Counted from the first letter of the whole stretch, positions 1 through 18,177 are shown. The stretch: 54,098 nt of DNA, filler included, from Dimargaris cristalligena (GCA_003614675.1; 3 parts of 3 records of this genome joined end to end with filler, not necessarily neighbours in it), one strand, 5' to 3'. The notes: generated by a model from the letters alone, not told the origin. Program-made: numbers and translations.

Positions 1-1780
1 CGGGGGGTGAGAGCCATGAGTCAATGGCCTGGAACTCGACATTAGGGAGGGCCTGCCGAATGGCATCAAGTCGGACCTGGTCAGCTGTATTAGTTAAAAT
101 TAGCTGAATACCACAGTCGTCCACCATATAGTGGATACGGTCACTGGGGAAAGTCGGGTCAATTGGTACAATAGCTGCTCCTGCCAAACCAACGCCCATG
201 TAGGCTGCGATGGTGCTGGGAACCCGGTCGATAATTAGGCCAATGGGCGTTTCCCGCTTGATCCCCTGTAGCAGTATGTGGCGGGCTAAATTCCTGGACC
301 GGCTGTACAAATCCTGATAAGACCATTGTAAGTTATTAAACTCGACTGCTGGAGCACCTGGGACTGAATGGGCCGTTCGGGTGAATAGTTCAGGTACACA
401 TATCTCACAGTCAATGGCTAGGTAGGGGCGGGTAAGCTGTTCAGTGACCAAGGCCTTTTCACTCGAGGAGAGCATCGTAAGGCCTTTGGTGGACACCTGC
501 CCATCGGAATTGGCCAAGGTGGAGACCAGGCCAGAAAAGAGTGCGATTAGGTGGTGGGACAAATTCTCAATGTAGCATTTGTCAAACGTGGACGAAATCC
601 AGTTCAAATTCACCGTAAGTTGACCGTGTTCGACTTGTGTAATGACGGCCAGAGGGTAGTCCGTTGACTCCAAAACGGCCGTGTCCGTGAAAGTAACCGA
701 GTGGTTTAGGTTATCTAAACCGGTGTCGGGATAATTTTCGTACACTAGTAATGAGTTGAACATATTACTTGGGCGAACGTCGGTATTAGTCCACTCATTG
801 ATCTTGGATAAATGCAGGTGCTCAAAGGGGACCATTTTTTGAGAATCTCGATGTATCATTGTGACAAGTTCAATAACCGACATTTCGTATTTCAATGAGA
901 CTCGGAAAGGTACGGTATTGATGAAGCAGCCCAGGAGCGACTCAATACCGGGGAGGGGTAGGGCTCGCCCGGAAACCGTGTTGCCAAACACCACATCGGA
1001 CTGGTCGGTGTATCGACTTAGTAGGAGAGACCAGGCGGCCTTGATGAGGGTGTACGGGGTAATGTCCGCTAGACGAGCTACTCTATGCACCAGAATGGCA
1101 TCGGGGAACAGAACAAAGAAAAGCTCGCCCTTACCATGCCCATGTATGCTGGGTGGTTTCGGTAAAGACAGCTCAGTTGGCTGTTCCACTCCTTTCAAAT
1201 ATTCTCGCCAAAATGTTTCGGCCCCAGCTTGGTTTGAATTTTGTATATATGCCACATAATCATGAAATGAAGTCGTCGTAGTGGGGCTCTGTTCGAGATT
1301 CCCTTGAAGATGGGATCGGAGCTGGTCTAACAGAATGCCAATAGACCAGCCGTCAATAAGGGCATGGTGAATAGTCAGTAAATAGCGGAACGAGCTGGGG
1401 GTCAGCTGTTTAACGTATATCCGTAGGAGTGGCTCATTCGATTTGAACCCCCGGGCTAGGTTCACCTGTAAGAAATGTTCCTCGCTGGAAGCATCAAAAT
1501 CAGACCATTCATTAACCACATGCCAACCAAATCGAGGTTCTCGAACAACAACTTGGACGCCCTGGCAGTGGGGATTGCTCCAGGACGTTAAAAATACCGT
1601 ACGTAGAATGACGTGTTGGCTAATGACAGCCTTAGTAGCAAGTCGGAGCTGGTCAAAATTCGATACACCATTCACAGTGAAGGACATTTGAACCAGGTAT
1701 TCGGAAGGATCCTTAGCCGTGGCTGTCCACATGCCCTGCTGCATGGGCAGCATGGGGTAGAGGGCTTCGACATCATTCTC
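1..1780 (-). other. NRPS condensation domain after E3 (positionally DCL) and the start of adenylation domain A4 (cut by window edge)
   Basis: YPMLPMQQGM, HHALIDGWS (~1344-1370), DVVFGNTVSGR, GCFINTVP, YENYP, TDYPL; then WSYQDL and AGAAIVPIDP. Confidence 0.9.
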
Positions 1781-4700
1781 GGAAAGGCCAACGGTTATCA
1801 GCTCAGCCTCGAGTTTAGCCAGTTCAGGTAAAGTGGCTTGTAGGTCAGTAAAGTCCGACGGGGTCCAAACACTGGGGGCAGGGGTCACATCGAGAAGTTG
1901 CACCATATTGGAAAGAGAGTCGCGGAAGTGGTTCAACAGAGTCTCAACCACGTACGTCGCAATGACATGTGGGCAGTATATAACCATGAACTTTAGCCCG
2001 TTCGGAGTTGGCAATCCGATAACCTCCAGCACCTGTGTCCGAAGCTCATTGGAGTCACAGACGGCCAGATCCGAAGTCAATTCTGGGCGAACTACCCAGG
2101 GAGCTCGGCCGTGCATAGTCAAGGCCCCACCATTTGTTGTGTTCCCCAGGTAGTTAAAGCAGACCTCCATAGGTGAGAGTGGCTGTCCATTAGATAACCC
2201 ACCTTGGGAACGGCGAAGAACCTGTTGAAGACCATGCTGCAACCCGCAGGTCCCAGTTAAAGATCGGAGGGTCTGTTTGGCCTGTTTGAGGAAATCTAAT
2301 GGTTTCGTTTCAGTATTCACCTGGGCTTGGCAGGGAGCCATAGAAGTGAACCAACCGACGGTGCGGCCAGGATCGAGACTGGGCTGCCACGGATGCCGGC
2401 CGTGGGATTCATTGAAAACGGTGATGGTCGGGGCCTGTGAAATACAGTGCAGGGCCTGAAACAGGCCAGCGAGCATCAGCTCTAGAGGTTGAATACGTGT
2501 ACTGTCAGGTTGCAAAAGGGCATCCGACAGGACTGGGTCTAATATTATTGATTGGCACTGGCTGTTGGCCTGGATGTTAAAAGCCAGGCAGTCCGGTCCG
2601 GTGAAGGGTAAAAACGATACCGGTTGAGTAGTTGGTGGAAGGTCGCCTTCAATGTCAGGCATGGTCAGTTTAGCCCAGTTAATCAACTCTGTTGCCCAGG
2701 TAGCAAATGAAATGGGCTGCGGCACGGGTGATTGTCCATCTAGGAGTTTAGCCAAATCCTCCAGTAAAATCGACCAGGATACCAAATCTACCACTAGATG
2801 GTGGATAGTCAGGAATAGCAATTGACCCTTAAATGGCTGAGAAATAGTGGCTGAATGAGAGGTCTCGGATGCTGATGCGTTACTATCATCATCCGAAAGG
2901 GTAAAGAGACCTGCTGCCAAATGATACCCCTTAGTAATATCAAGCGATGCCTGAATGGTAAGTAGCTGACCAGATAGATCGGAAACTGATGTACCGAGCT
3001 CCACAATTGGAATAGGTAACTCAACGAAAGGAGGAACTATTTTTTGAGACCATTGGCCGGGATTACCAGTCGGATCTCGGGTGAATTGACTGCGTAACAT
3101 GTCATTGCCGTTAATTAGCCGGAGCAAGGCGGAGGTAAGTTCAGCGGCAGTTAATGGCCGGGACAATTCTAAGGCAAACGACTGGTTGAAATGGTTCGGG
3201 TTGGACCAGGGGTGGTCAAAGAACCACTGTTGAATCGGGGTGAGCGGAAATTTCGCGTGGTATTCCACGGGCTGAAATTGGCTGGTTATGTTACCTGCTG
3301 ACGAAATCAGGTGCATTTTCTTGGCGGCGTCGCGTAAGGGACCGGATCCCAGTAGGGCGGCGGTAGGCAAAGTAAACCCGAGTTGACGACACTTGGATGA
3401 GACTTGGATGGCTGAAATGGAGTCACCCCCAATCTTCACAAACGTCAGGTCCAGATTAATTTGATTGAGTGGAAGGCCGAGTACCTCTCCCAGGGACTGC
3501 ATCAATATGGTTAGCGGCTGATCCCTTTCAGACAAGTTATCCAATAGCAATAACTGTTGCCGATGAGTGGTTAAATACTCAGCAAAGTGATTTTGGAGAA
3601 ACTGGGTATCGCATTTGCCATTGTTGGTAAGAGGTACGTTTGGAAGACTCAAAATATAACTGGGCACCATATATGACGGAAGCTGGTCGGCAACGGAAGC
3701 ACGCAGGGTATCCTCACTACCAACAAAATCTGGGAACACGTAGCCGACCAAGAACCGGTCGCGGACGAAAATGGCACAGTCCTGGACGCCGGGCTGGCGC
3801 ATCAAGACACTGCGAATCTCATCCAGTTCGATACGGAATCCCCGCAGTTTCACCTGGCTGTCCATGCGCCCCAGGCAAACTACTTGTCCATCAGGTAACC
3901 AGCGACCCAGATCACCGGTCCGGTAGATTTTACCGCGTCCTGTGAATGAATTATCAACGAATTTGGCCAGAGTAAGGTCCGGTTGATTAATGTAGCCGAG
4001 GGCAACACCGATACCACCGATGCAAATCTCACCGACGGCACCAATTGGAACCAAACGCAGGTTTTCATCCAAAATGTAACACTCGTAGTCGGCCATTGGT
4101 CGGCCGATTGGAACACAACCAGAGGGTGGAACCTCCGTCATTAGGCAGGCAATGGCGGCTTCGGTTGGCCCGTAGACATTGTGAAATGCAGTAACCGCTG
4201 ACCACTGATTTGCCAATTCCCGGGGTAAATGTTCACCACCAACTAGCAAACTGTTCAGGTTGGTATAGTCGTGGGGATTCAGGGTAGAGATGATGGACGG
4301 AAGCAGAATAGTCTGTTGTACTGTCTTCAATGTGCCCGGAAGATCATCGCCGTAGAAAACCAAGGTAGACCCGAAGCATAAGGGAAGCAAGGTGTTCAGG
4401 AAAAAGACGTCAAACCCAGCAGCCATGCCGTTCATGGTGCGAGTGCCAGGCTGTTGCAGCATCTCGAGAGTAGGGCTGGTAAGTATATTCAAAAGGCTGC
4501 GATGTTCGACCATGACACCCTTGGGGAGACCGGTGGATCCCGAAGTGAAGACAATGTAGGCCAGGTCTGTTGGTTGAATGGGGTGGAGGGAGGATGCTGT
4601 GGTGGTAGACTCGATACTTTTGGCAAGGTCGTCAATGTTGATTACTTCGCACCACTCTGCGTCCACTCCTGATGCATTCACAATACACGTACAACCAGCC

Positions 4701-7700
4701 GTGTCGACAATGTACTTTTGACGGGCAGTCGGGAGCTTGTGATCCACCGGTACATAGACGGCCCCGACACCCCAAACAGCCAGCATGCACATAACCGCAT
4801 CTGGGTGATTGGCCACAATAACACCCATCTTGTCGCGTGGTTTGACATTAGCACGTTGGAGACGCTCGACCAGTCCAAAAACCCGCTGAGATAGTTGGGC
4901 GTAGGTGTAGGTCTCATTGGAAATTTCAGTGGCCACTCGATTGGGATATTTTTGCACCATTTCCGAGAATAAGTCTAGAACACTTAGATGGGGATTGTCC
5001 CGTGTAACTGAATTAGGAGGTCCGAGAGCGAATTTGCCCAAGATGAGGCTGGTCTCGGCTGGACACACCAGTAATGCCGTGGACCACGGTTGGTGGTCGA
5101 CCACTACTGAATGGGCATAGGTCAGGAAATTGTGAAGTAGGCGGTTGGCCGTGTCATCGTTGAAGAGAACCTGGTTAAACCTCAATTGGCACATAGGTGT
5201 ACGGTTATGGCAATCAAAGACAAGTTGCAAGTCGTAAGGGAACATCGTCCGGGGCAATCGGGGCCTGGTACAGCGGACTGAAGTATAATTGTCCCCGGGT
5301 CCGAGCGGATAGTGGAATACAAGTGATATACAAGATAAGCCGGAAACTCTGTGCTGGCCTTCGAGAGACAAGTGGGTGACAAGAATGTCCATCGAAGGTA
5401 TGGCGTGGAGCTGGGAGTCTTCGATCTGGCGGGTCAGTTGGCCGATTAGTTCAGGGAAATCTAATGATAAATCCCCCTTCACTCGAAGAGGTTGTCCCAG
5501 TGCCAACGAGGCTTCTATATCCGCAGAAGCACCACTATTCTTGACAGCCGGACTACTTATGTCCACAATTAAATCAGTCTTCCCCGTCAGGCGCAACAAG
5601 AATGTCGCAAATAGAGACGACCAGATCGCATATTCCTTAACCGACTCATTCGAAGCCTGTACCTGAATAGCTTCAAACAATTGCCCCTCAACTCCGGTTT
5701 CGGCCAAGCTGCAAAAGAAAGAGGGCACTAGGGGGCGAGGTCGGTCAGTCGGAAGAGCCAGTTCAGCGGGTAAGTTCTGAAGAAGAGTTTTCCAATAGTT
5801 GAGTTCTGATTTAGTAGGCTCACTAGTATCGCAGCTTTTCGTACATTGGACATCGGGTAGACTGGGTGAATGTCCTACTAATTTGTAAGTGAGGGCCCGC
5901 ACAATCTCTTCAAATTCCCTGGCGGATCCGAAGATTTCGTGGACACGAATTACAATTACCGAGGAGTTGTTATCAGCTGTGCCAGTGGGCAGCTGATACA
6001 AGTCGAGCTGGGCCAACACACCTTGATTCAAATCAAATTGAGGCGCATTCACGTCCAACTGGTCGCCATTGAATACTTGAGAACTGGTAAACTGGTGTTC
6101 AGTCACGCCAACTGGCACTCGTGGTAAAACATTACAGGTGAGAGCACCTCGAACTGATAGAAACCGACAACGAAGGGATTCAAATACAGTGGTTAAGTGG
6201 TCGATAGACCGCTGGACCTCCGCCAACTGAAGCGAAATCGTGAAAGTGATTGTACACTGGTGATAGAAGACAGATGAAGGATTGCCCAGTCGACTGAGGG
6301 ACCAGACTCGTTGTTGATGGCTAGTGACTGACTTCGCATGAGTATAGAGAGGCGATGAATTTGGAGGGGAAATATCGGTCGCTTCAATGGTGAAATCAAG
6401 GGAATGTTCATCCACACCTCGCTTAATAATGCCCTTGATGATTGAGGCTAAAATGCGAATCTCGGTGTGTTTAACCAATTCATCTAAACCAACGGTGATG
6501 CCAAATTTCTGGCGAATACGATACTGAATTAGGTCCAGTTGGGCCAGCGGAACCTTTGATGTGGACATAAGAAGTTTGGTATCACTACTAGCAACTGAAG
6601 AATGGTCGGAGGATGCGTATAGCTCATTCACTACCACCATCAGCCACCATTCATACTCTGATAAGGACTGGGATGATCGAGCTGTAACGGTGGCTAGATA
6701 TGCTTGGGCAAAGTGCGGGAGAAGCTGGTCGTCAAGCTCAGCCACGTGTGGGAATGCACTGGCCGAAATAATCTCATCGGGCACGAGAGTGGCTGGAATG
6801 GCAGGCGGGACCATAATGGACTTGAGTCTAATTAATTCTGCCTCGGTGGTATTGGAAACGAGCACCACCAGCCGGTCATCAGATAAGACCATGCAGAGTG
6901 GATATTGGGCACTGGCTTCAGATAATGCCCGAACCAGAGTACCGAGATGGACCTGCCGGTGCTTAATGGCCACCCGCTGGCTGACCGGCCCCAGAATATG
7001 GACAAAACCGGCGGTATCGCGGTAGCCAAGTACTGATTGCAAGAGAGGAGCCGAGCAATAGGGAAACGAAGTGCCCAAGAATGCCAGTCGACCAACTACT
7101 CCAGGGGGACAAAGATGGCCATGTTTACCCAACACATTCAAAGCGTAGCCATCATTGGATGGTTTGTCTACAATAGGTAAAGAGCGGGAAGCCAGTTGCT
7201 CTAGGGTGATACGCCGATGCCCATGGAAGGTGGATTTGATAAAAGCTAGGCAGGTATCGGTTGATTTGACCAAACTTTCGACATGAGGCCAGGCGTCCTC
7301 GTTTAAGTCCCAGAGAACGAGCCGGTCACCCACTGCCGAACAGTGCGTTAAGGCACCGACAGTCAATACATGACAAGGTGAAGATCTGGCATTATCGTGC
7401 GTAGACGGATCAAGGGTCGAGATGATTGCTTGTAAGGTTAGGCACGATAGAGTAAACCAAACGGCCTGTGGGCTGTCCAGGGCCAAGGAATCATCCAAAG
7501 TATACTGCCTCTTGCTATCGATAAAGGGCCAGGTTGAAGCAAGGGTATATTGGATGCGCGGGCCATCAATACTTGATACCACCGGATCAGCCGAACTGCT
7601 ACGGGATGCAAACACCAAGGAGGGATCTTGTAAGTCAGTCGGCTGCTTGAATCGACGAGTGACTCGGGTTTCGCTGATCTTCTGATCAATTGAGTCTGGT

Positions 7701-10700
7701 ATACCAACCATAGCAATATCACTATCCAGATAAGGGCGTACATGCTCAATGTCGGTGGATGGTAGCCACACTATTTGCGCACCAATCGCTTTAGAACACG
7801 CCGATAGTTGACCAATGGTATAGGGTGATGCCCGAGGTAGGAGTCGAGCCCCCAATTTGATTGCACTCACTAGGCAGATCAGTAATTGTTCGACGCTGTC
7901 TACTACGGCCACGACCGTTGGGTGGGGGAGTAAGCCAGATTGACTGGATTGAGCGGCGAGTGAATCGGCCAGCTTGTCAAGCTGACTATATGACAGGCTA
8001 CGTGAGGCTGAAATATAGGCCAGGCTATCTGGTTTCTCCAACAAAGAGCCATTCCAGATGTCTTTTAGTAGCGGGCGAGCTGGGACAATCGTAGGGCTTC
8101 TCGATTCTTGATCAACGTGAAGGTGGCAGTTTGCCGGAGTATTTCCAAGTTCGAGTTGGTCCATGGGTGTGCTCATATCTGCCGCTAGAATCTGCGTGAG
8201 AACACACTGAATCATATCGACTACCTGACTGACGGATCTTTCAGAATAGATGGATGTATCGTAGAATACCTTGGCCTTGATGCCATTAGAGCTGTCGATA
8301 AAGTCAATGGCCAGCGGGTACTCCGTAAACTCGTGTATATGCAGGTCACATAACACCAGGCTGTGTGCCGGATTAGCCACAGGAACAGGAAAATTCTCGA
8401 ACCCTAGAATGGTTTGGAACAGTGGTCCAGATTGGTCTGTGGAAGCCCACTTAGAAATGTCAGTTAAAACTGAATGTTCAAACGGGATCATGGCCACTTG
8501 ACCTTGATGGACGGCCTTCAACCAGTCCGCCATTAAGTGATGGTCCAGACGCACCCGGGAAGGTAAGGTATTCGTACAGGGACCAATCGTCTGGTCGATC
8601 CCGGGCAGGTTTAGATTACGTCCGGACAGAGTCACGCCGAACACCACTTCGTCCTGGTCGAGTAGATAGCCTAAAACTAGGGCATAGGCGGCCCGGAATA
8701 AAGTGGCCAAAGTGACCCCAAATCTCTGCGAACATTGGGTTAACTGGGTTTTGGAAAGATCGACACTGGTTAAATAAGTCGTCCAACCAGGTGACCCAAT
8801 GTAGCCGGGGGAGAGAAGAGGGGCGGGTGACTTTGGTGCATCTTTTAGATAGTCACTCCAAAAGGACTCGGCCGGCTCCGGATTGAACTGGCTGACACAC
8901 TGAATAATGGATGGAAAGGGGGCCAATGGAGAACTCGTCTCCAGGTTGGGATGGTGATAGGCCTCCATCCACGCCTGGAATAAAAGAGGCAACGACCACC
9001 CATCGCACAGAGAATGGTGGAAGGTAATAACGGTATCGTGTACCTGGCTATCAGTGGTAGGGAACACATAATTGCGAAACATATGCTCCTGCAGTGTAAA
9101 GCCGCGCTGGCGGTTCTGGACTAAGAACTCGTCAAGTGACTTTAAGGGTTGATCAGAGACAGTCCAGGTGGTGGGACACGACCGAAGGACAGCCTGGATA
9201 TACCCTTGAGACTGTTTCGATGACGACTCGAGAAATACGGTGCGCAGGGGGGCGTGCTGCTGGACAACTGCCTGCCAGGCCTGGAGCAATCGACCAGCAT
9301 TAAGCGGGCCATTGAATTTAACGGCAATCTGCACCAAATAGGCGGTGGCGTCAGTGGATAGTCCTGTCAATAGACCACCCTGGAGAGCAATACAGGGAAA
9401 CAAGTCCTCCACTTGATCCAATGGAATGCGACGTCGATGGAACTCATCAATAATGTCCTGGAATTCGGAAGCGGAAAGTTGGAGGTGGGTAAAGTCAAAT
9501 CGTGTAAGGAGTGGCTCCACACTAATGGACCGCGGCTGGTTTATGTCATTGGCGAGCTGGACGAGACTTCGGCGCCATTGGACCATGATTTCATCGACAA
9601 TGCTTCGGCGATACACCAACGGATTGTACTCCATGATTAGGCGCAAGCAATCGCCGACCACTGTGGGCATGGGATTAATGTCATAAATAACCTTGTCCTG
9701 GGGGGCAAAGTCGTGCAGACCGAAATAGTCGGACCACTCGATGGATAACAAATCGTCGCTTAGATCTCCACCAGTATTGCTGAAACGGCCGAAATAATTA
9801 AATTGGACGTCTAGGCGGGTCGGGGTCTTGGCCTCCAGCTTGACCCGCTCTTCCACTGAAACGCCAGGCATGTATTTCAACAAGGAATAGGGAAATCCTT
9901 TCATTGGAATTTGCTGTAGGGCCTCTTTGGTGTGGCGCAGTAGGTCCAGTAAGGGCTGGCCAGGTCGAACCCGAAGAACGAGGGGGTAGAGAGAGGTAAA
10001 CCAGCCCACAGTGCGGGTTATGTCCTGATTAGATAACCACGGCTCACGACCGTGTCCTTCCATACAAAAAGTAACTTGGTCCAAGCCAATGGTAGTGGTA
10101 AAAGCCTGGGTGAAGGTGGCCAGAAGTAGGTCTCGCGGAGTGACGCGTAGCTGCGGGGCCAATTGGAACAATAGTGAGTGCGTGGATTCAGAGCCAAATT
10201 CGAAAGACGTGGAGAGACGGGCAGCCTGGGAGCCGGTACCATCCAATTCTGGCGGTGGAAGGAAGTCATATATATTTGGAATAGGCTTGTCAGGGTCTAC
10301 TTGAGTGGGCCAGATGTCGGCCGATAGGGTTGCTGCATAGTCGTCGAGCTGAGAGGCCCAGACTTGGAAAGGCAATGCCTTCGGTGGAAGTGAGGCGCCT
10401 CGAAGAAGGGTATTTAAATCCTCAATCAGAATGCGCCAGGCAACCAGGTCCACCAAGACGTGGTGGATGGTGATGAAAAGGCGGGACGGGGATGAACTGT
10501 CTGAATCATGGATCAGGGCCACTGCCAACACAGGGCCTGTGATAAGGTTAAGGCTTGACTGGACCCGCAGAATAAAGTTGGTATAATTTTCGGAAGAAAC
10601 TGTCTCTTCAAATACCAGAAAGTCGGTGGGGAAGGCCTTGGCTGTAGGTATCGCCTGGACCCACAGCTGGTCGCCATTACTTGGCTCGAATCGGGCCCGG

Positions 10701-13399
10701 AGAATGTCGTGGTGGTTGGCCAGGGTCACAAAGGCATCGGAAATGGCCGCCAATGATAAATTGGCTTTGGGGTTTATATTCAACGTAAACGACTGGTTAA
10801 AGTGGTGGGGGTTACGAAGACCAATGGCACTGAACCAGCACTGGATAGGTGTCAAGGCCACCTCGCCTAGGATTTGTTCCTGGTAGGTGGCATAGGCATT
10901 GGCTTGGTGACTAGAGGTCCTTTCAGTGTGCCGGGCCAACTGTCGGAGTTCTGGGTACTGGTAGATTAATGGTACGGTTAGTTGATATCCAATCCGGCGA
11001 CCCTTGGACACGAGTAAAATGGCCGAAATAGAGTCACCACCGATTTGGAAAAAGTGGTCAGTAGTACTGATGCGGTCGGGGTCTAAGTGTAGGACCTGGG
11101 CCCAGATCCGGCAAAGGTCATGTTCGGAATCAGATTGGGGAACAATAACTTCGGACATCGTGGAGTCGGCGCTAGTTGGGCTGGTCAGTAAATGGTCGAT
11201 TGGGGGTAAAGACCTGCGGTCCAATTTACCGCTGGCTGTGGTTTTAAATTCCGTGACAAGCACTACTAGGCCAGGTACCATCTGCTTAGACAACCGCTCC
11301 TTTAGATAGCTCAGCAGGGCCAGCTGGTCCAAGTCCGCAGGGCTAGCGTAAAGCACCAGGGTGTCCTGTTTTACTGACGCCACGCATTGCTTGAGATCTG
11401 GAAAGTGGCTACTAACCGACTCAATTTCTTCGAGCTCGATGCGATACCCGCGCAGCTTGACCTGGTTATCGATACGGCCCAGGAAGTCGATTGTGCCATT
11501 AGCCAACCAACGGGCCTGGTCCCCGGTCCGGTATACCCGACCCGGTCCGTAGGGATTGGGAATGAATTTGGTTTGGGTAAGTTCCGGGAGGTTTTGGTAG
11601 CCTCGGGCTAAACCAATCCCACCAATGAGAAGCTCGCCGGGAACTCCGACAGGTACTAATTGAAGCTGGTCATCCACGATGAAACAAAAAGTGTTGTGTA
11701 TGGGCCGACCAATGGTAATGTCATCGTCAGAACCGATTTCAATCGAATGGCTGTAGATTGTCGCTTCCGAGGGCCCGTAATAGTTAATCATGTGGCACCG
11801 GTGAGCCCAGTTTGCCTGAATTTCGGGAGTGATGGGCTCGCCAGCCATCCCAATTAACTCCAGATTGGGGTAGTCATTAGGGTCGAGGCGGGCCACAAAT
11901 GAGGGAACAAATGACCCGCTAGTGAGAGTGCGCATGTCTTCCAGGATATTATCACCGGGGACCACCAGTGTACCTCCGTGACATAGGGTGCGTAAGGTGT
12001 CGACCAAGAAGGCGTCAAAGATCACAGACATGCCCTGAATGGTCCGTTTACCTGGCCCAAAGTGGTCCGCTAGATAAGGGTCGGTAATCAGACTTGCTAC
12101 CCCACTATGTTCCACCAAAACCCCTTTGGGGCGACCCGTCGTACCTGACGTGTAGATCATATAGGCCAGATCGCTTGATTTTGACGGATATGGGGTAAAT
12201 GAAGAAATCTCGGGGATTTTGGAGTGTTCAAGGTAGGAATCTACAATAAGAGCTGTTGCAGTCGACTCGGCCGGCAGGCGGTCATAGGTGGTGCTGGTGG
12301 CAATAACCATGAGTGCGCCACTATCCTCGAATATGTACCGAATACGTTCAATCGGATATTCGGGGTCAATGGGAACATAGGCGGCACCCGACTTGAAAAT
12401 CGCCAGCATGGTGATGTTGAAGGCAGCGGACTTGGGTATGAAGATGGCAAATCGCATCTCAGGTTGGGCTCCATATTCGTCCACCAACACTCGGGCGAGA
12501 TTGGAAGTAACCCGGTCCAGTTTGGAGTAGGTCCATTCATCGGGGCCATAAGCCAGGGCCAGATGGTGGGGGTAGCGCTGGGCACACTGACTGAACAGGC
12601 AATGGGCGGGTAGCCCAACTGTTTGGACAGGCTCATTCATGCGAGAGAACTCCATCAGGCGGGCTCGTTCATTGGCGCTGACCCAGGGAATATCACGCAC
12701 CAAGACAGGCTGGTCTCGGCCCAGGGCCTCCACTACGGACGACAAAACAGTGACCAGTTGGAGGGCAAACTCAGCTACAGCCGATCCACGGTATTGAGCT
12801 CGAGGATAGGTGACGGCGATTAGGACCTGATCATGATACCACTCGCAGCTAACCATGAGTCGGGCGGTTGTCTCAATCAACATCGCAGAAAAGGACGGGT
12901 CAGCATCGGATTCACCAGGCTGCCCAATATGTTCAGCTAGGGGGGACGTTGGTTGATGTTTACTTGGCCCAGCGTTGTCGACACGGAGAATGACTTCAGC
13001 CACCAGGTCGGTGGAGCTGGGCAAATGGTCTGACCTGGCCTCCTTCAGGATGGAAGAGTCGAGCGGGACATCCGGCTCTACCTGGGCAAGAACTAAGCGA
13101 AGTTGTTGACCGGCTGCTTCGCCTTTCTCAATTGGACCTGTCCATTGAGTGAAAGCGACGGCGGGCTGGCGGTAGTAGCGACTCAGGAGAAGTGCAAGGG
13201 CTATTTGGCAGGGTGGAGTGAGGTCAAGCTGTCTGCCTCCTAGCGAGGCCGGAAGAGGAAAGGGGTGCGACCAGTTGGCATAGCCTGTCACACATTGGCG
13301 GGGTTTGCCAAGAGGCAAGTCAGCCGCGGGCTGATAATCAACGGGAACCGTGGGCATACGAACGCGCGTGTTATCATTGGGGTCCACTGACGAATACAT
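1..13399 (-). CDS. Multimodular nonribosomal peptide synthetase, single exon, 3'-truncated at the window/contig edge (>=4,466 aa): C*-A1-T1-E1-C-A2(degenerate)-T2(degenerate)-C(degenerate)-A3-T3-E3-C-A4...
   Basis: Manual translation from ATG at 13399 (MYSSVDPNDNTRV...) stays in one frame with no stop found down to base 1. Motifs read: LAYMIYTSGTTGRPKG, YGPSE, YRTGD, GRIDNQVKLRGYRIELEEIE, FFQIGGDSI, HHVLVD, EGHGRE, RTVGWFT, HHSLCDGWS, LAYIVFTSGSTGLPKG, YGPTE, IGGDSI, HHLVVD, HHALIDGWS. Probably absent from the ORF track because it has no stop codon in the window. Confidence 0.96.
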   Translation of the reverse strand, partial: MYSSVDPNDNTRVRMPTVPVDYQPAADLPLGKPRQCVTGYANWSHPFPLPASLGGRQLDLTPPCQIALALLLSRYYRQPAVAFTQWTGPIEKGEAAGQQLRLVLAQVEPDVPLDSSILKEARSDHLPSSTDLVAEVILRVDNAGPSKHQPTSPLAEHIGQPGESDADPSFSAMLIETTARLMVSCEWYHDQVLIAVTYPRAQYRGSAVAEFALQLVTVLSSVVEALGRDQPVLVRDIPWVSANERARLMEFSRMNEPVQTVGLPAHCLFSQCAQRYPHHLALAYGPDEWTYSKLDRVTSNLARVLVDEYGAQPEMRFAIFIPKSAAFNITMLAIFKSGAAYVPIDPEYPIERIRYIFEDSGALMVIATSTTYDRLPAESTATALIVDSYLEHSKIPEISSFTPYPSKSSDLAYMIYTSGTTGRPKGVLVEHSGVASLITDPYLADHFGPGKRTIQGMSVIFDAFLVDTLRTLCHGGTLVVPGDNILEDMRTLTSGSFVPSFVARLDPNDYPNLELIGMAGEPITPEIQANWAHRCHMINYYGPSEATIYSHSIEIGSDDDITIGRPIHNTFCFIVDDQLQLVPVGVPGELLIGGIGLARGYQNLPELTQTKFIPNPYGPGRVYRTGDQARWLANGTIDFLGRIDNQVKLRGYRIELEEIESVSSHFPDLKQCVASVKQDTLVLYASPADLDQLALLSYLKERLSKQMVPGLVVLVTEFKTTASGKLDRRSLPPIDHLLTSPTSADSTMSEVIVPQSDSEHDLCRIWAQVLHLDPDRISTTDHFFQIGGDSISAILLVSKGRRIGYQLTVPLIYQYPELRQLARHTERTSSHQANAYATYQEQILGEVALTPIQCWFSAIGLRNPHHFNQSFTLNINPKANLSLAAISDAFVTLANHHDILRARFEPSNGDQLWVQAIPTAKAFPTDFLVFEETVSSENYTNFILRVQSSLNLITGPVLAVALIHDSDSSSPSRLFITIHHVLVDLVAWRILIEDLNTLLRGASLPPKALPFQVWASQLDDYAATLSADIWPTQVDPDKPIPNIYDFLPPPELDGTGSQAARLSTSFEFGSESTHSLLFQLAPQLRVTPRDLLLATFTQAFTTTIGLDQVTFCMEGHGREPWLSNQDITRTVGWFTSLYPLVLRVRPGQPLLDLLRHTKEALQQIPMKGFPYSLLKYMPGVSVEERVKLEAKTPTRLDVQFNYFGRFSNTGGDLSDDLLSIEWSDYFGLHDFAPQDKVIYDINPMPTVVGDCLRLIMEYNPLVYRRSIVDEIMVQWRRSLVQLANDINQPRSISVEPLLTRFDFTHLQLSASEFQDIIDEFHRRRIPLDQVEDLFPCIALQGGLLTGLSTDATAYLVQIAVKFNGPLNAGRLLQAWQAVVQQHAPLRTVFLESSSKQSQGYIQAVLRSCPTTWTVSDQPLKSLDEFLVQNRQRGFTLQEHMFRNYVFPTTDSQVHDTVITFHHSLCDGWSLPLLFQAWMEAYHHPNLETSSPLAPFPSIIQCVSQFNPEPAESFWSDYLKDAPKSPAPLLSPGYIGSPGWTTYLTSVDLSKTQLTQCSQRFGVTLATLFRAAYALVLGYLLDQDEVVFGVTLSGRNLNLPGIDQTIGPCTNTLPSRVRLDHHLMADWLKAVHQGQVAMIPFEHSVLTDISKWASTDQSGPLFQTILGFENFPVPVANPAHSLVLCDLHIHEFTEYPLAIDFIDSSNGIKAKVFYDTSIYSERSVSQVVDMIQCVLTQILAADMSTPMDQLELGNTPANCHLHVDQESRSPTIVPARPLLKDIWNGSLLEKPDSLAYISASRSLSYSQLDKLADSLAAQSSQSGLLPHPTVVAVVDSVEQLLICLVSAIKLGARLLPRASPYTIGQLSACSKAIGAQIVWLPSTDIEHVRPYLDSDIAMVGIPDSIDQKISETRVTRRFKQPTDLQDPSLVFASRSSSADPVVSSIDGPRIQYTLASTWPFIDSKRQYTLDDSLALDSPQAVWFTLSCLTLQAIISTLDPSTHDNARSSPCHVLTVGALTHCSAVGDRLVLWDLNEDAWPHVESLVKSTDTCLAFIKSTFHGHRRITLEQLASRSLPIVDKPSNDGYALNVLGKHGHLCPPGVVGRLAFLGTSFPYCSAPLLQSVLGYRDTAGFVHILGPVSQRVAIKHRQVHLGTLVRALSEASAQYPLCMVLSDDRLVVLVSNTTEAELIRLKSIMVPPAIPATLVPDEIISASAFPHVAELDDQLLPHFAQAYLATVTARSSQSLSEYEWWLMVVVNELYASSDHSSVASSDTKLLMSTSKVPLAQLDLIQYRIRQKFGITVGLDELVKHTEIRILASIIKGIIKRGVDEHSLDFTIEATDISPPNSSPLYTHAKSVTSHQQRVWSLSRLGNPSSVFYHQCTITFTISLQLAEVQRSIDHLTTVFESLRCRFLSVRGALTCNVLPRVPVGVTEHQFTSSQVFNGDQLDVNAPQFDLNQGVLAQLDLYQLPTGTADNNSSVIVIRVHEIFGSAREFEEIVRALTYKLVGHSPSLPDVQCTKSCDTSEPTKSELNYWKTLLQNLPAELALPTDRPRPLVPSFFCSLAETGVEGQLFEAIQVQASNESVKEYAIWSSLFATFLLRLTGKTDLIVDISSPAVKNSGASADIEASLALGQPLRVKGDLSLDFPELIGQLTRQIEDSQLHAIPSMDILVTHLSLEGQHRVSGLSCISLVFHYPLGPGDNYTSVRCTRPRLPRTMFPYDLQLVFDCHNRTPMCQLRFNQVLFNDDTANRLLHNFLTYAHSVVVDHQPWSTALLVCPAETSLILGKFALGPPNSVTRDNPHLSVLDLFSEMVQKYPNRVATEISNETYTYAQLSQRVFGLVERLQRANVKPRDKMGVIVANHPDAVMCMLAVWGVGAVYVPVDHKLPTARQKYIVDTAGCTCIVNASGVDAEWCEVINIDDLAKSIESTTTASSLHPIQPTDLAYIVFTSGSTGLPKGVMVEHRSLLNILTSPTLEMLQQPGTRTMNGMAAGFDVFFLNTLLPLCFGSTLVFYGDDLPGTLKTVQQTILLPSIISTLNPHDYTNLNSLLVGGEHLPRELANQWSAVTAFHNVYGPTEAAIACLMTEVPPSGCVPIGRPMADYECYILDENLRLVPIGAVGEICIGGIGVALGYINQPDLTLAKFVDNSFTGRGKIYRTGDLGRWLPDGQVVCLGRMDSQVKLRGFRIELDEIRSVLMRQPGVQDCAIFVRDRFLVGYVFPDFVGSEDTLRASVADQLPSYMVPSYILSLPNVPLTNNGKCDTQFLQNHFAEYLTTHRQQLLLLDNLSERDQPLTILMQSLGEVLGLPLNQINLDLTFVKIGGDSISAIQVSSKCRQLGFTLPTAALLGSGPLRDAAKKMHLISSAGNITSQFQPVEYHAKFPLTPIQQWFFDHPWSNPNHFNQSFALELSRPLTAAELTSALLRLINGNDMLRSQFTRDPTGNPGQWSQKIVPPFVELPIPIVELGTSVSDLSGQLLTIQASLDITKGYHLAAGLFTLSDDDSNASASETSHSATISQPFKGQLLFLTIHHLVVDLVSWSILLEDLAKLLDGQSPVPQPISFATWATELINWAKLTMPDIEGDLPPTTQPVSFLPFTGPDCLAFNIQANSQCQSIILDPVLSDALLQPDSTRIQPLELMLAGLFQALHCISQAPTITVFNESHGRHPWQPSLDPGRTVGWFTSMAPCQAQVNTETKPLDFLKQAKQTLRSLTGTCGLQHGLQQVLRRSQGGLSNGQPLSPMEVCFNYLGNTTNGGALTMHGRAPWVVRPELTSDLAVCDSNELRTQVLEVIGLPTPNGLKFMVIYCPHVIATYVVETLLNHFRDSLSNMVQLLDVTPAPSVWTPSDFTDLQATLPELAKLEAELITVGLSENDVEALYPMLPMQQGMWTATAKDPSEYLVQMSFTVNGVSNFDQLRLATKAVISQHVILRTVFLTSWSNPHCQGVQVVVREPRFGWHVVNEWSDFDASSEEHFLQVNLARGFKSNEPLLRIYVKQLTPSSFRYLLTIHHALIDGWSIGILLDQLRSHLQGNLEQSPTTTTSFHDYVAYIQNSNQAGAETFWREYLKGVEQPTELSLPKPPSIHGHGKGELFFVLFPDAILVHRVARLADITPYTLIKAAWSLLLSRYTDQSDVVFGNTVSGRALPLPGIESLLGCFINTVPFRVSLKYEMSVIELVTMIHRDSQKMVPFEHLHLSKINEWTNTDVRPSNMFNSLLVYENYPDTGLDNLNHSVTFTDTAVLESTDYPLAVITQVEHGQLTVNLNWISSTFDKCYIENLSHHLIALFSGLVSTLANSDGQVSTKGLTMLSSSEKALVTEQLTRPYLAIDCEICVPELFTRTAHSVPGAPAVEFNNLQWSYQDLYSRSRNLARHILLQGIKRETPIGLIIDRVPSTIAAYMGVGLAGAAIVPIDPTFPSDRIHYMVDDCGIQLILTNTADQVRLDAIRQALPNVEFQAIDSWLSPP
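1880..3520 (-). other. NRPS T3 carrier domain plus epimerization domain E3; boundaries approximate
   Basis: FVKIGGDSISA (~3410-3445); LTPIQQWF, HHLVVDLVSW (~2774-2803), ESHGRH, RTVGWFT, FNYLG. Confidence 0.9.
3590..5000 (-). other. NRPS adenylation domain A3 (intact); boundaries approximate
   Basis: YTYAQL, GAVYVPVD, YIVFTSGSTGLPKG (~4517-4560), FDVF, NVYGPTE, GEICIGG, YRTGD, GRMDSQVKLRGFRIEL, LPSYMVP, NGKCD. Confidence 0.93.
5110..8080 (-). other. Degenerate A-T-C tridomain (pseudo-module) kept in frame inside the NRPS; boundaries approximate
   Basis: A remnants LSYSQL, IKLGARLLP, CPPGVVGRL, GYRDTAGFVHILG...RQVHLGTL, but no TSGxTGxPKG, YGPTE, TGD or A10 Lys. T-like segment without GGxS. 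C-like segment with VHEIFGS in place of HHxxxDG but retaining YWKTLL...LPTDRPRP. Confidence 0.8.
8180..9420 (-). other. NRPS condensation domain after E1 (positionally DCL), intact; boundaries approximate
   Basis: LQGGLL, LRTVF, HHSLCDGWS (~8993-9019), VVFGVTLSGR, GPCTNTLP, FENFP, TEYPL. Confidence 0.9.
9560..11130 (-). other. NRPS T1 carrier domain plus epimerization domain E1; boundaries approximate
   Basis: DHFFQIGGDSISA (~11025-11060); LTPIQCWF, HHVLVDLVAW (~10436-10465), EGHGRE, RTVGWFT, FNYFG. Confidence 0.92.
11200..12610 (-). other. NRPS adenylation domain A1 (intact); boundaries approximate
   Basis: WTYSKL, KSGAAYVPID, YTSGTTGRPKG (~12121-12160), FDAF, NYYGPSE, GELLIGGIGLARGY, YRTGD, SGKLD. 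Confidence 0.93.
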
Positions 13400-13993: not shown

Positions 13994-14370
13994 TGTAACG
14001 ATATAAGAGTTAAGAGAAAACCTCACTACGTTCAGCGTCAATGTTGGAGTTGAGTCAAGGGTTTATTCGAGGTTTTTAAATAAGATAAGTAAAAGTAATC
14101 AAACAGGTAAAAGAACTGTAAATATGATGGTGTGAATTGTCGGGGATGATGGTGATAGGTCTTACTCGACGTCCATTGAGAACGTTCGTTATACAGTATT
14201 GATGTGGTTGTTTGGGCCGGGATGTAAATATGGCGTGCTGTAGTAAAGCCAGGATACCCCGGAAGAATGTAAGTCATTAACAGCTCAGGCTATTGAATAA
14301 TAATAGAGGAGATGCAGAGAGACACGTCAATAATTGATTGTATGTTATACATGTAACGTGAAACGTCACA
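13994..14370 (-). mobile_element. Solo LTR (377 bp) with 5-bp target-site duplication GCTAT
   Basis: Starts TGTAACG and ends CGTCACA (near-perfect inverted termini). GCTAT flanks it at 13989-13993 and 14371-14375. AATAAA on the minus strand near 14062-14067 suggests orientation. Confidence 0.75.
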
Positions 14371-15023
14371 GCTATGTTAAGTTGCCACTTGAACTTGTGG
14401 GGAATAATCTCCTTTTGAGAAGCATTAATCCTACTGTTGAATAGTGCCTCCGCATTACTCCCAGATACTTAGACTAGTACTTTTTTCTGATTGAGTCAGT
14501 AAGTACACCAGCCAGCCTGCAACCGCTAAGAGGGACGGCCGACCTAGGACGAAACCCATCGTTTGAATTTCTGCACCATGGCCGCCTACCAAGCGGGGCG
14601 CGAACAGATTCCAACCCGATTGAGCCCAATGAGCAAACCTAGAGCATAAAACCTAATGGATCTACCATAACCCCGGGACCCTCGTGTCTTAATAAACTAA
14701 TAATTTATACTTTACATCTAAATTAGTGCCTACCCGATTTCCCCCCTCGGACCCTACTACACGGTTAACCACCGCCCCCTACCGGTCCCCCTCGACCGCT
14801 ACGTTATAAACCGTTTGCATTCCCACTTTGGCCAGGTTTTTTTTGTGTCTGCTTGCCTTATTTTTTACTTACTTCTCACACGCTTCGACTATATTGTTTC
14901 AATTTTCTAGCACTGGCTCTCTGCCCTGGTCATTGTTTGCGGCTCGATGTTGTTTACCTATGGCCGTTTTATAATACTTTACAGGTATTTATAATACTTC
15001 TTGCCTATGGGATATATGTATAC

Positions 15024-15573
15024 TGTGGGGGGGGGGGGCTTGGGCGGGCCTTATTTAGTGGCTTAGTTATTAGAAAGAACAAACCAGCACCGCTGTTGCT
15101 AATATTATGCCAATCCCAACGCAGCTAATTAACGCCAGAACTCATAGACAAGGTATATCCTCTAACTTATGTTTACATTTACGTTTACGTTTACTACGAC
15201 AAATGTTATTGATGCGTATATAGCCTGTAGGGCAGTGGGGGTACAGGGTCTTTGTGGGGAGCTCGGGAGGGACACGGGCACAGGGCGGAAGGGTTTCCTG
15301 CTACCAATAAAATGGGGATAGATGTAATATGGAATAGTAAATATGCTCGGAAAGACACTAAAAACACTAATAAGACTTGGGTAAATGCTAGGAAATTCGG
15401 GTAAACACTAATAGGCTCGGAAAACACTAATGGAACTCAAGAAACTCAAATAGCTCAATAACTCGATAATAACTCAGATAACTCTGGTAAATACTCGGAA
15501 AATACTCAAAAGGCTCTGGAAACACTAGAAAAGATACTCGGGACAGGAACTCGTTTTCCTGGAGACGTTCACA
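15024..15573 (-). repeat. LTR-like relic with an internal degenerate tandem array (ACTCGG/AAACACTAATA-type units, ~15340-15545)
   Basis: TG...CA-like ends (TGTGG / TTCACA), short imperfect repeats, TATA-like CTATATA on the minus strand near 15217-15223; no TSD found. Confidence 0.3.
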
Positions 15574-16384
15574 TAAAATTGGACTCATTTTATTAATGGG
15601 TTGGAACGACTGACGCTATTTATACAACGGCAGTGAGCGAGATGCAAGTAGCGAGTTATAGCAATTTAGCAATGGAGACCAGATGTTAGATATGGCGGAT
15701 TCGTTAGTAAATGACCGCAGCACAAGGGAAATATGAAATGAATGGAACCATCAGAGTTCCGTCATCAATTTGGAAGACGAAATAACCGGGTTAAACCAGT
15801 AGCGACTAGGGTGGGCCCATGTCTAATCCAGTTTGACATACATGCCGCGGACCGCAGCGGAATTTCCAAGTAAAAATTGAGGCCGAAATAGTAAATACGT
15901 TTCAGTTATGATTATACTAAGGGGGCCGATGATTACCATAGGTCTATCAAGCGGGATGACTAAATGCTTAAAATAAGTAGAATTCGACCCAGAAATATGA
16001 GGAAACGCATGATATATATATGGGAAAATAGGTTGGTGATAATATTTCAGACAGCAATATTCGCCCCATCCAACGGATTTTTAGTCATAGCCTAGTTGGA
16101 CCTCTCCTGAATGATTTTTAATTAAAATATGTCGGAATCCAGATAGCGGGCGCTATATTTTTTATTATACCCTGGGTTCTTTTACAGGGCCGATTGTGTT
16201 AGTAACCATTTACTGTTATTTCGGCGGCGCATTCTCGCTGGTAAAGCCAAATGGGCCACCGGCGGCTTTTGCGGTTGGCTTATTATTATACCGGTTTTTA
16301 CATTACAATACGACATTCTTGCCGCGACCTTATGCCTCTATTCGGAAAGTATGGAATTACTGGCATTCAACAACAGTGTCCTAT

Positions 16385-16998
16385 TGTTATATTATGCTTA
16401 ACCATTGATTACCGTACATTATGGGAATAAAATAACTATATAACCTGCCCAGTCCACCGCATCTGACCACGTATCAGTGTTTATTTCCCGACACCTATTA
16501 CCTGGCGGGCTGAATCATGCAATGCGATTACAATGAGTGCATGCGCCATTCTCTCCTTCTTTTTAAGTTAGCTTTGGACCGATATGCTGATATTACCTCT
16601 ATCCCGGCGGCTGAGGCAAATACAAGATCTCCACCGGTGGCTGAGACTAGCCCTGTCAATTGCGACGAGATAGTATCCTTACCAGAGGACAACATGGCCG
16701 AGAATCCAATGAACCAGGGCTCTGGTCATTCAGACACCCCGGTCATCGAAGAATGACGATCTCGCATATATATGATAGAGAACCTATTGCACGGAGTTCA
16801 CTGGATTACAAGGCTAGCACTTCAACCTCGACGCGATAGACTTTATCTGACTATATAAAGGGTATTCGGCCAGGAAAACTGATATCCTCTTAGTTTACTA
16901 GCGTTCATACCCTCTATTACTTTATTCACGCTATACATTCCAAATAAAAACCGCTCCTTACATTCGCTAGTCCAACATTGAGATTTAGAAGTTCTACA
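16385..16998 (+). mobile_element. Probable solo LTR (614 bp) with 5-bp TSD CCTAT
   Basis: TGTTA...CTACA flanked by CCTAT at 16380-16384 and 16999-17003; TATATAAA at ~16852 followed by AATAAA at ~16942, the U3-R-U5 order. Confidence 0.55.
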
Positions 16999-17968
16999 CC
17001 TATAGTCATCATTGAATGCATGTTCGATTAAGTATGATAAAATCAGACGAAGGCTTCTATAGGACCCTAAATAGACGTACCACGTTACAATATTTAAGGT
17101 ATTTTTAGGGAATCGTTAAGTAATACATAGGATCCATGTGCAGGTAATTGGGTCACAATTCATCAATACAGGGAGTCTGGCGGTGGGGGGGTATTGGGAT
17201 CTATAATGTGACATGGAAGCAGGAGACCAGAAGAAATGTGATGTATTACCCACAGTCCTATTTATTTCAACCCCTGGTCTTCAAAAAACTAGTTATAAAC
17301 CAGTATAGTGTACTAACCGAGGCCTAAATGCCTTGGTTGAGTGTGTTTTAACGCAGAGGGTTGGGGAACTACTTCTATTGCAACCACTGGCCCATGCCAA
17401 GCACTAAATACCTGGTTGGGGACCTTATTCCTCCAAACGAGAAATCACCGCCAGAGAGGTAGTCAAGTTATAGGTCCAATTTGCCTCATAATGAGAAGTG
17501 TGTTGCCAACGATTTGAGGGACTCTGCTGGTTTGCCTTTGGGAGAGTCGGCAGGAGGGGGAACCTCCGGTTTCTTTCCACTAGACGGCTCGCCATATTTC
17601 GTCATATAATGCGGAGTGTTGGACTTTGCTGGGTTCGAGGGGGTTGAGACCAAGGTGACCTTGGGGAAGTCGCCGCTGAGTTCCTGGTCGTCCATTGCGT
17701 CGTACGTTGTCGTCTCACGTCGCTGGTCGTTAAGAAAAATATAAAATATAAAAAACGTTATAAGAAAAACGTTATGATCAAACGGTGTAATCAATTTAGT
17801 ACTCGGGGATACCAAAACTTCGAACTGAATAGATGAAAATAATGAAGTAAAATAGAATTGGCAGTAATAATAATCAAAGTAAAACTGTGTAAAGGGTAAT
17901 CGTCGATATCGTTGGGTGAAGTTAAAACAGATATTTATTCATTTATCTCGAAACTAACTTGTCCCTTC

Positions 17969-18068
17969 NNNNNNNNNNNNNNNNNNNNNNNNNNNNNNNN
18001 NNNNNNNNNNNNTTAATTAATTAANNNNNNNNNNNNNNNNNNNNNNNNNNNNNNNNNNNNNNNNNNNN
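17969..18068. other. Artificial contig-joining linker (N44-TTAATTAATTAA-N44)
   Basis: 100-bp N run with a central six-frame stop cassette, same as 36034-36133. Confidence 0.97.
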
Positions 18069-18177
18069 TCAGGGGCAGGGGCAGGGGCTCATTCACTCGT
18101 CAGGGGCGTACTTCCGATAAGTGCGAAAAATAGATAAAAAATAAAAGTAGGTAAAAAAATGTGGTAAGTTCACCACA
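18069..18177 (-). mobile_element. LTR family A terminus (CpG-intact copy)
   Basis: Matches 18884-18990 and 36477-36583; ends ...GTTCACCACA (TGTGGTGAAC on minus). Confidence 0.75.

Follow-up and report, generated by a model that had tools for sequence, protein, structure and literature searches.

Several nonribosomal peptide synthetases (NRPSs) keep a domain or a module that has lost its usual function. The siderophore synthetases NPS6/SidD and module 2 of Sib1 contain a fungal adenylation (A) domain that lacks core motifs and is kept in all homologues (Bushley & Turgeon, 2010, PMC2823734; Bushley et al., 2008, PMC2644324). The carrier (T) and condensation (C) domains of that degenerate dA-T-C module are taken to work, with the carrier presumably loaded by an adjacent A domain (Schwecke et al., cited in PMC2644324). 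Module skipping has been reported for myxochromide S (Wenzel et al., 2006) and Trichoderma peptaibols (Degenkolb et al., 2012), both cited in PMC10549243, and is part of the PlmJ proposal for penilumamide; in these cases A-T-C is present and contributes no residue. Skipping by the upstream C domain is one of two routes given for skipped modules (Heard et al., PMC10549243). The X domain (Tcp12, PDB 4TX2/4TX3) has the condensation fold with a broken HHxxxDG motif and serves the non-catalytic binding of P450 enzymes (P450s), and the C-terminal epimerisation-like domain of LgrA is a retained, inactive member of the condensation superfamily (PMC10510592). Here we describe an NRPS gene of Dimargaris cristalligena, a mycoparasite in the Kickxellomycotina, in which a whole A-T-C module is degenerate and is kept in frame between two active modules. 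The gene lies in a stretch of 54,098 nucleotides, referred to as the window, that joins three records of the genome with filler.

The NRPSs of this organism are expanded, with 27 genes and 'modular synteny' described in PMC6784888 and a count of 21 given in PMC7466969. Up to 89 NRPSs are given for Tieghemiomyces parasiticus, and almost no match to known clusters is reported (Reynolds et al., 2023, PMC9866270). No published description of the degenerate module was found in the available text of the Dimargaritales NRPS and module-skipping literature, supplementary Fig. 7 and Table 6 of Ahrendt et al. (2018) excepted.

An open reading frame (ORF) scan of the window gave an NRPS frame (P0001) on the minus strand at 13399..2 with 4,466 codons, free of stops and open at its 3' end. 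The translation is 100% identical over the aligned part to the D. cristalligena protein BJ085DRAFT_35489 (P0002). The domain order obtained from Pfam searches on pieces of the frame and from motif positions is N-A1-T1-E1-C2-[A*-T*-C*]-A3-T3-E3-C4-A4 start, where N is the N-terminal region, E denotes epimerisation-type domains and the asterisks mark the degenerate domains. The pseudo-module A*-T*-C* consists of residues 1775-2770 (window 8077-5090, minus strand). A single uninterrupted frame across a pseudo-module with an epimerising module on either side is what had been claimed in an earlier reading of the DNA (the original prediction), and all motifs quoted there, including HHSLCDG, VHEIFGS and LPTDRPRP, were located at the places given. 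The canonical motifs are confined to modules 1 and 3, with TSGxTGxPKG at residues 417 and 2952, YGPxE at 541 and 3076, TGD at 625 and 3161, and GGDS at 787 and 3324. The segments found in the pseudo-module are LSYSQL (residue 1802), IKLGARLLP (1847), SLVFASRSS (1927), CPPGVVGRL (2097), GYRDTAGF (2125), HVAELD (2218), VHEIFGS (2486; window 5944-5924), and LPTDRPRP (2549).

A* (residues 1775-2235, window 6695..8077, minus strand) matches the AMP-binding family (PF00501) with 36.5 bits (cut-off 29.9) over profile positions 7-112 of 384 only, that is, in its first ~100 residues, and A1 and A3 score 228.6 and 224 bits. The phmmer search against the PDB likewise covers only residues 16-132, with a match to LgrA (E 1.8e-8). 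The pseudo-module is nevertheless colinear with a full A domain plus carrier domain when aligned to A1-T1 and A3-T3. A-domain motifs of interest are the P-loop (A3 motif), A5 (YGPTE), A7 (Y(R/K)TGD), A8 with its hinge Asp, and A10 with the catalytic Lys. In this alignment the P-loop position of A* is occupied by SLVFASRSSSADP, the YGPTE position reads STDTCLAF, the YRTGD position reads LGYRD with a deletion, the position of the A8 hinge Asp reads LGPVSQRV, and that of the A10 lysine reads FPHVAELD. The predicted loss of P-loop, YGPTE, TGD, and A10 lysine is thus borne out, as the canonical forms occur only outside the segment and the aligned positions differ. T* (residues 2236-2335, window 6395..6694, minus strand) aligns with T1 and T3 and has Pro2284 in the column of the phosphopantetheine serine, in agreement with the missing GGxS serine noted before. 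The stretch that contains it (window 6341-6790) matched no Pfam family at E<=10, PF00550 included.

The loss of the ATP-binding and catalytic motifs shows that canonical substrate binding and activation would be beyond A*. The missing serine likewise shows that T* of the window protein could not be phosphopantetheinylated. Because both the A* motifs and the T* serine are lost, the pseudo-module would add no residue and would pass no chain through T*.

C* (residues 2336-2770, window 5090..6394, minus strand) is better preserved. It matches Condensation (PF00668) with 70.5 bits (E 1.5e-19) over profile positions 6-434 of 456, compared with 165 bits for E1 and 157 for C2. The weak matches that had been expected from a profile scan were obtained for A* and for C*, whose match spans nearly the full profile, and T* gave none. 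In the C3 motif of C*, RVHEIFGS, the first His and the Asp-Gly are lost and the second His (H2487) is present. The RHExLRT-type motif reads VFESLR, so that its Arg is gone. All three lost residues, this Arg as well as the first His and the Asp, have a role in active C domains. The closest solved relative of C* by sequence is the FscG PCP-C structure 7kvw (C3 of FscG; E 8.9e-12; PCP, peptidyl carrier protein), and other near solved relatives are Txo2, DhbF, Txo1, and TycC. An origin of C* as a recent duplicate of C2, C4, or C5 was considered and rejected, because a BLASTP search against the C domains of P0004 gave no match at E<=1e-3 except its own counterpart.

The search of paralogous NRPSs that the original prediction had proposed found the same pseudo-module at the same position in the paralogues of this genome and in relatives. 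Segment 1774-2764 retrieved ten more D. cristalligena gene models with 35-70% identity, followed by bacterial NRPSs with 21-29%. A module profile (from the sequence alignment labelled A1) was searched against 1.84 billion representatives, and proteins of T. parasiticus match profile positions 11-1012 as a single 355-bit stretch. Among the matches listed, the best stretch starts before profile position 300 in P0009, P0012, P0122, P0125, P0140, and P0175, and at position 334 in P0006; all seven proteins are from Dimargaris or Tieghemiomyces. When residues 1-830, the protein's head, served as the query, proteins of Dispira simplex, D. xerosporica, and D. verticillata and further ones of T. parasiticus were found. 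The homologues are from five species (D. cristalligena, D. xerosporica, D. verticillata, Dispira simplex, and Tieghemiomyces parasiticus), and as far as these searches show, this NRPS family would be restricted to the mycoparasitic order Dimargaritales.

With hmmsearch and the module profile, the module was found directly after C2 in all 18 Dimargaritales proteins that have the N-terminal head, and it was also matched in homologues truncated at the N-terminus. Twelve of the 18, including P0004 with a gap inside the module, carry it from the A* start. The remaining six proteins are all from Tieghemiomyces, and their match starts at profile position ~391. No family member examined lacks Asub*-T*-C*, where Asub* is the small subdomain of A*. 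Over ~1,000 residues the pseudo-module is colinear, with 35-70% identity to paralogues and 25-27% to the other genus.

The decay is shared by the family and is not unique to this copy, since the same degenerate module was found in 22 homologues of the five species. The regular expression for the A3-motif P-loop matched in 0 of the 22 homologues (the region is absent or truncated in nine). The carrier column, as read from the table of the 22, has Ser in one, Thr in six, and Pro in 14, with a Thr-Pro-Lys context in Dispira. In the C3 motif of C* the first His is found in 0/21, the second His in 21/21, and an Asp at the canonical place in 0/21. The flanking domains are intact: HHxxxDGWS of C2 is kept in 20/20 homologues that include C2, the T1 serine in 19/19 that include T1, and a P-loop occurs downstream of the module in 18/20. 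The distribution shows a pseudo-module that would already have been degenerate in the common ancestor of the family and that has stayed in frame and colinear since then. In an unrooted tree of ten proteins from two genera, the Tieghemiomyces proteins join D. cristalligena P0011 and do not lie outside all Dimargaris copies; because of this grouping, part of the family duplication may predate the split of the genera.

Relative rates at the protein level were obtained with one tree and edge-proportional branch lengths for each domain partition. For eight Dimargaris proteins, the rates of the pseudo-domains are 1.24 (A*), 1.05 (T*), and 1.31 (C*), and those of the active domains are 0.70 (A1), 0.48 (T1), 0.77 (C2), 0.71 (A3), 0.95 (E3), and 1.01 (C4). 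For ten proteins of two genera, they are 1.39 (A*), 1.31 (T*), and 1.53 (C*), against 0.97 (A1), 0.54 (T1), 0.53 (E1), 0.78 (C2), and 0.81 (A3). The pseudo-domains are thus ~1.4-2.4x faster than the matching active domains, a pace that would not erase the module, and C* is the fastest partition in both sets (1.31 and 1.53). Within Dimargaris, E3 and C4 are the active domains that come nearest to the pseudo-domains in rate. The gamma shape alpha is 1.5-2.6 in the pseudo-domains versus 0.7-1.5 in the active domains, a flatter variation that fits, as expected, the loss of the sharpest catalytic constraints. Variation among sites within the module is still strong, with a log-likelihood of -18857.9 under LG and -18639.1 under LG+G4 (gain 219).

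Of the 984 well-occupied columns, 67 show no change over a tree length of 7.6 substitutions per site, and H2487 is one of these. The invariant motifs specific to the module, CPPG..G, FPH, AYL, WL, and RxH, are non-canonical. Identity is distributed evenly along the module, with values of 0.14-0.39 between genera and 0.30-0.57 within Dimargaris; the C2-A* linker alone approaches random identity, and the maximum of 0.39 between genera is reached at the C*-A3 junction. Active NRPS domains are assumed to have a ratio of nonsynonymous to synonymous substitution rates (dN/dS) well below 0.4. We regard neutrality of the pseudo-module as implausible because a rate of 1.4-2.4x would need an active-domain dN/dS of 0.4-0.7. 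From the relative rates of the proteins and the assumed dN/dS of the active domains, we read this as putative purifying selection on the pseudo-module. A comparison of polymorphism between two assemblies (P0003/P0006, P0004/P0007, and P0011/P0012) gave 62/1,590 differing sites in the pseudo-module versus 17/4,988 in the intact domains. This excess was rejected as an artefact because the differences cluster at gene-model junctions; the long high-scoring segment pairs are 96-100% identical.

Structure predictions were made for the parts of the pseudo-module. The AF2 model of A*-T* (12 sequences) has a mean predicted local distance difference test score (pLDDT) of 60.5 and is confident at residues 31-130 and 370-555. 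Residues 31-130 form the N-terminal subdomain of the A core, and residues 370-555 form the small A subdomain and four carrier-like helices. The first ~30 query residues are misplaced into C2 in the underlying alignment (A2). The N-terminal subdomain of A* superposes on the A domain of FmoA3 with a VIA-align Z of 13.1 and a root-mean-square deviation of 2.4 A over 103 residues. All 50 VIA-align rows listed for the model are adenylate-forming enzymes; these span residues 25-464 and barely cover the T* part. The top Foldseek matches of the model are A-PCP structures. The T* helices (474-490, 511-525, 531-536, and 540-553) are in the expected order with a block pLDDT of 78-90, and Pro2284 is model residue 510, one before the second helix (511-525). 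For the whole module, the Foldseek list holds A-PCP-C and multi-module NRPS structures, with the DhbF cross-module structure 5u89 at the top (E 2e-22, TM ~0.2), and this result is used as a statement of colinearity only.

C* predicted as a single chain with ESMFold2 has a pLDDT of 74-75. The complex prediction of C* with the A3 core gave an ipSAE of 0.41 against a best value of 0.00 among three controls, which is weak support, with a contact agreement between runs of at least 92% and a partner pLDDT of at least 74. In the calibration of this test, 51 of 78 solved complexes attained the mark, as did 2 of 108 mismatched pairs; the range at or below 0.60 holds only 5 of those 78 solved complexes and all 4 passing mismatches of 180. 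The score of C*-A3 may reflect likeness to solved C-A didomains and not the binding of this copy.

The reading that we favour, to which we give about an even chance, is that the pseudo-module is a skipped, non-catalytic scaffold derived from a former A-T-C elongation module of a multi-modular NRPS. The D-configured residue from A1-T1-E1 would be joined directly to the residue on T3, with T1 as donor and T3 as acceptor. Since T* would carry no chain, the chain on T1 reaches T3 directly or not at all. C2 (window 8150..9502, minus strand; Condensation 157.2 bits) is proposed as the joiner because it is the sole C domain with an intact HHxxxDG between T1 and T3 (HHSLCDG, residue 1461, window 9019-8999) and is kept in 20/20; the family-wide HHxxxDGWS favours skipping through this upstream C domain. 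The dead module would be retained as folded architecture, in which C* would be the usual N-terminal platform partner of A3 and Asub*-T* a tether between C2 and C*. In favour of this, the C*-A3 junction is the best conserved part of the module, and gene models of the family lose a whole domain elsewhere (E1 in P0008, P0009, and P0289) but never Asub*-T*-C*.

Several points weigh against this proposal. We infer the skipping step and the choice of C2 from sequence, and purifying selection is read from protein-level rates and an assumed dN/dS. The D. xerosporica protein P0321 (pseudo-module 1450-2475) reads LGGSLAE, with Ser at the carrier column. The claim that C* is dead holds for its HHxxxDG, which is broken (VHEIFGS), and C* may not be wholly inert because the second His, His2487, is kept in 21/21 and Arg2485 in 20/21 homologues, as a purely structural domain need not do. 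Likewise, the claim that all three domains are kept at near full length stands for the window copy and fails elsewhere, as six Tieghemiomyces gene models are without the A* core and P0004/P0007 are without ~150 residues of A*. Automatic gene prediction supplied many of the homologues and evidently placed false in-frame introns in them, and such deletions may be artefacts. The AF2 model of the whole module (7 sequences) is weak (mean pLDDT 45.4; predicted TM score 0.30), and the centre of the A*-T* model (130-370), the would-be nucleotide site, is poor (pLDDT 28-54).

The six Tieghemiomyces models without the A* core still keep Asub*-T*-C*, which for this reason is the constant part of the module, and their junction lies at the hinge where the A core naturally gives way to its small subdomain. 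An A* that is needed as the neighbour of C2 was also considered; these six models and the gap in P0004/P0007 speak against it, and A* is not an indispensable partner of C2 because they lack it wholly or partly. A more specific form of the scaffold proposal, which we regard as tentative and somewhat doubtful, is that Asub*-T*-C*, together with A* where a member has it, as most do, is a required, non-catalytic 'bridge module' of ~110 kDa made from the dead module. As part of this, it would position the T1/E1/C2 head against A3/T3 for a bond across the missing module, and the invariant Arg2485-x-His2487 may bind or handle the pantetheine-linked donor. If this is true, the module would count among NRPS building blocks as a new class instead of being a relic.

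The retention of H2487 has another possible explanation, in which C* is still a catalyst that forms the bond onto T3 through its second His, or performs transfer or gatekeeping, and C2 has another role. C* occupies the place of the T3 module's own condensation domain, it matches the Pfam Condensation profile at full length, and H2487 is present in 21/21 homologues of five species despite ~25% identity between genera and is one of the 67/984 invariant columns. We consider this unlikely, as C* has lost the first His and the Asp of HHxxxDG together with the RHExLRT-type Arg (the motif being VFESLR), there is no adjoining donor carrier (T* is without the serine), the partition is the fastest-evolving one (1.31 and 1.53), and the perfect motif of C2 in 20/20 would lack an explanation. 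The family-wide conservation with the non-canonical, module-specific invariant motifs (CPPG..G, FPH, AYL, WL, and RxH) could also be expected of a docking platform for a trans-acting enzyme or partner, by analogy with the X domain that recruits P450s, and the structure 4tx3 (X domain with OxyB) is at Foldseek rank 39 of the low-confidence module model. No candidate partner is present among the six larger ORFs that were tested within 40 kb upstream, and most such NRPS genes are alone on short contigs (Ahrendt et al., PMC6784888), which makes a docking role appear rather improbable.

The ~1,000 carrier-less residues between C2 and A3 might instead mean that module 1 is uncoupled, so that A1-T1-E1-C2 would have its own product or a soluble acceptor and the peptide would start at A3, where C* would be a starter-type domain in vestigial form; the region ahead of A1 may likewise be C-lobe-like and vestigial (hhalign probability only 49%). 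The head has stayed fused to the remaining modules in 18/18 head-bearing proteins of several species, no hint of a release function was found after C2, and C2 resembles C4 (32-33% identity), which follows E3 inside the chain. An uncoupled module 1 is accordingly given little credence. Plain degeneration, in which the segment would be junk that is in frame only for the downstream modules or is removed from the mRNA, is the explanation to which we give the least weight, and we regard it as very improbable. The downstream modules do suffice to explain the in-frame state, the pseudo-domains are faster with flatter variation (alpha 1.5-2.6 versus 0.7-1.5), and gene predictors repeatedly excise pieces of the segment (P0002, P0006, P0007, P0010, P0011, and P0012). 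It does not sit well with the colinearity over ~1,000 residues at 35-70% identity to paralogues and 25-27% to the other genus, with the single 355-bit stretch at profile positions 11-1012 in Tieghemiomyces, or with 67 invariant columns at 7.6 substitutions per site. The predictor also excised 49 codons of the intact C4, and the piece missing from P0002 is present in the P0003, P0004, and P0005 models.

Comparing the pseudo-module to the described systems, the siderophore dA-T-C is similar in its A domain without core motifs that is kept in all homologues. However, its mechanism is inapplicable here because the carrier serine is gone in 21/22 and the C motif is broken in 21/21 homologues. Skipped modules elsewhere are nearly intact, and the myxochromide case reportedly depends on a point change of its carrier. 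In the pseudo-module each of the three domains is heavily degenerate, this state is fixed across the family and five species, transfer through T* is excluded where the serine is absent, and the skipping itself is proposed from the protein sequences. The X domain lies at the end of the last module. It is like C* in its fold and broken motif, but it acts as a single domain, whereas an A-like and a T-like domain are kept together with C* here in the middle of the line. The inactive domain of LgrA is also one domain at the end of the protein, whereas here a whole module is located between two active ones. What is new is the combination of three dead domains, their fixation across an expanded family in five species, and an only moderately relaxed constraint.

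NRPS engineering and genome mining assume that one module equals one residue and that domains without motifs are noise. Because a whole A-T-C module is dead in every family member and yet conserved, automated predictions for the many Dimargaritales NRPSs would overcount by one residue. Gene callers also mishandle the pseudo-module and cut false introns into the segment. If the pseudo-module is a required scaffold, it would be a natural experiment on the separation of donor and acceptor carriers and on the parts of a module that serve architecture versus chemistry, and the natural variants seemingly without the A* core would be a ready-made deletion series. The host organisms of the family are mycoparasites.

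The public model P0002 drops 69 in-frame codons of C* (window 5171-5377) despite the open frame, and it also drops 49 codons of C4 (window 1148-1294) where the frame is open too. It starts 14 codons later than the open frame and has a different end. The gaps of P0002 are probably false introns. Because the intact C4 is cut as well, the cuts in C* are no evidence of introns. Similar gaps are present in the models of paralogues, with parts of C* missing in P0010 and P0011. E1 is absent between T1 and C2 in the models P0008 and P0009 (D. cristalligena) and P0289 (T. parasiticus), and P0008 and P0009 have no recognisable T3. The gaps in E1 (P0008, P0009, and P0289), T3 (P0008 and P0009), and C* (P0010 and P0011) may be false introns; if the P0008, P0009, and P0289 models are real, whole-domain deletions occur in the family. 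In the T. parasiticus proteins P0336 (~1735-1760), P0289 (~1210-1235), and P0351 (~1715-1745), the C2 linker leads directly into the A8-like region. P0321 has degenerate A* and C* like the other homologues.

The remaining domains of the gene are all on the minus strand. The N-terminal region (residues 1-260, window 12620..13399) matches no Pfam family at E<=10 and is conserved in the family. It is 41-73% identical in the Dimargaris paralogues, and the head hidden Markov model matches 18 of the 21 Dimargaritales proteins searched. In hhalign (probability 49%, E 1.7e-4) residues 176-241 align to C-domain positions 383-449, where the C4 alignment has its last 66 residues. This is a weak hint that the 260 residues may be what is left of a condensation domain's C-terminal lobe. 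A1 is intact (11165..12619; AMP-binding 228.6 bits) with TSGTTGRPKG at 417, YGPSE at 541, TGD at 625, and GKLD at 724. T1 is also intact (10910..11137; PP-binding 50.3 bits; GGDS 787). It is followed by E1 (9530..10882; Condensation-family 165 bits; HHVLVDL 979), which we take to be epimerisation-type from its position and general knowledge of such domains. Downstream of the pseudo-module, A3 is intact (3575..5032; AMP-binding 224 bits and AMP-binding_C 38.5 bits) with TSGSTGLPKG at 2952, YGPTE at 3076, TGD at 3161, and GKCD at 3261. Intact T3 (3305..3532; PP-binding 32.4 bits; GGDS 3324) precedes the epimerisation-type E3 (1880..3277), which lies within Condensation-family stretches of window 2-3499 and has HHLVVDL at 3533. 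C4 (470..1822) is intact with the best Condensation stretch of the protein (residues 3878-4302) and HHALIDG at 4011. The A4 start (2..382; AMP-binding 79.5 bits, profile positions 1-118) belongs to a gene that runs past the window edge. The longer relatives P0004 (7,380 amino acids) and P0008 (7,319 amino acids) have more modules beyond A4; five P-loops, five carrier serines, and seven HHxxxD motifs were counted in P0004. The window gene, cut at A4, is probably similar in size to these two.

Long ORFs are scarce in the 54-kb window, with nine of at least 150 amino acids. No tailoring enzyme, P450, transporter, or phosphopantetheinyl transferase was found among the six window ORFs scanned. One of the six larger upstream ORFs is without a family. 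The regions 14001-20000 and 34001-38000 have 36-42% G+C and are without a long ORF, and the NRPS gene has ~50% G+C. The neighbours at 21418-24738, 38365-40776, and 49906-52114 are a SET-domain protein, a calpain-type protease, an F-box protein, and a Zn2Cys6 factor. The Zn2Cys6 transcription factor is in two pieces or exons, with Zn_clus at 49906-50583 and Fungal_trans at 50846-52114.

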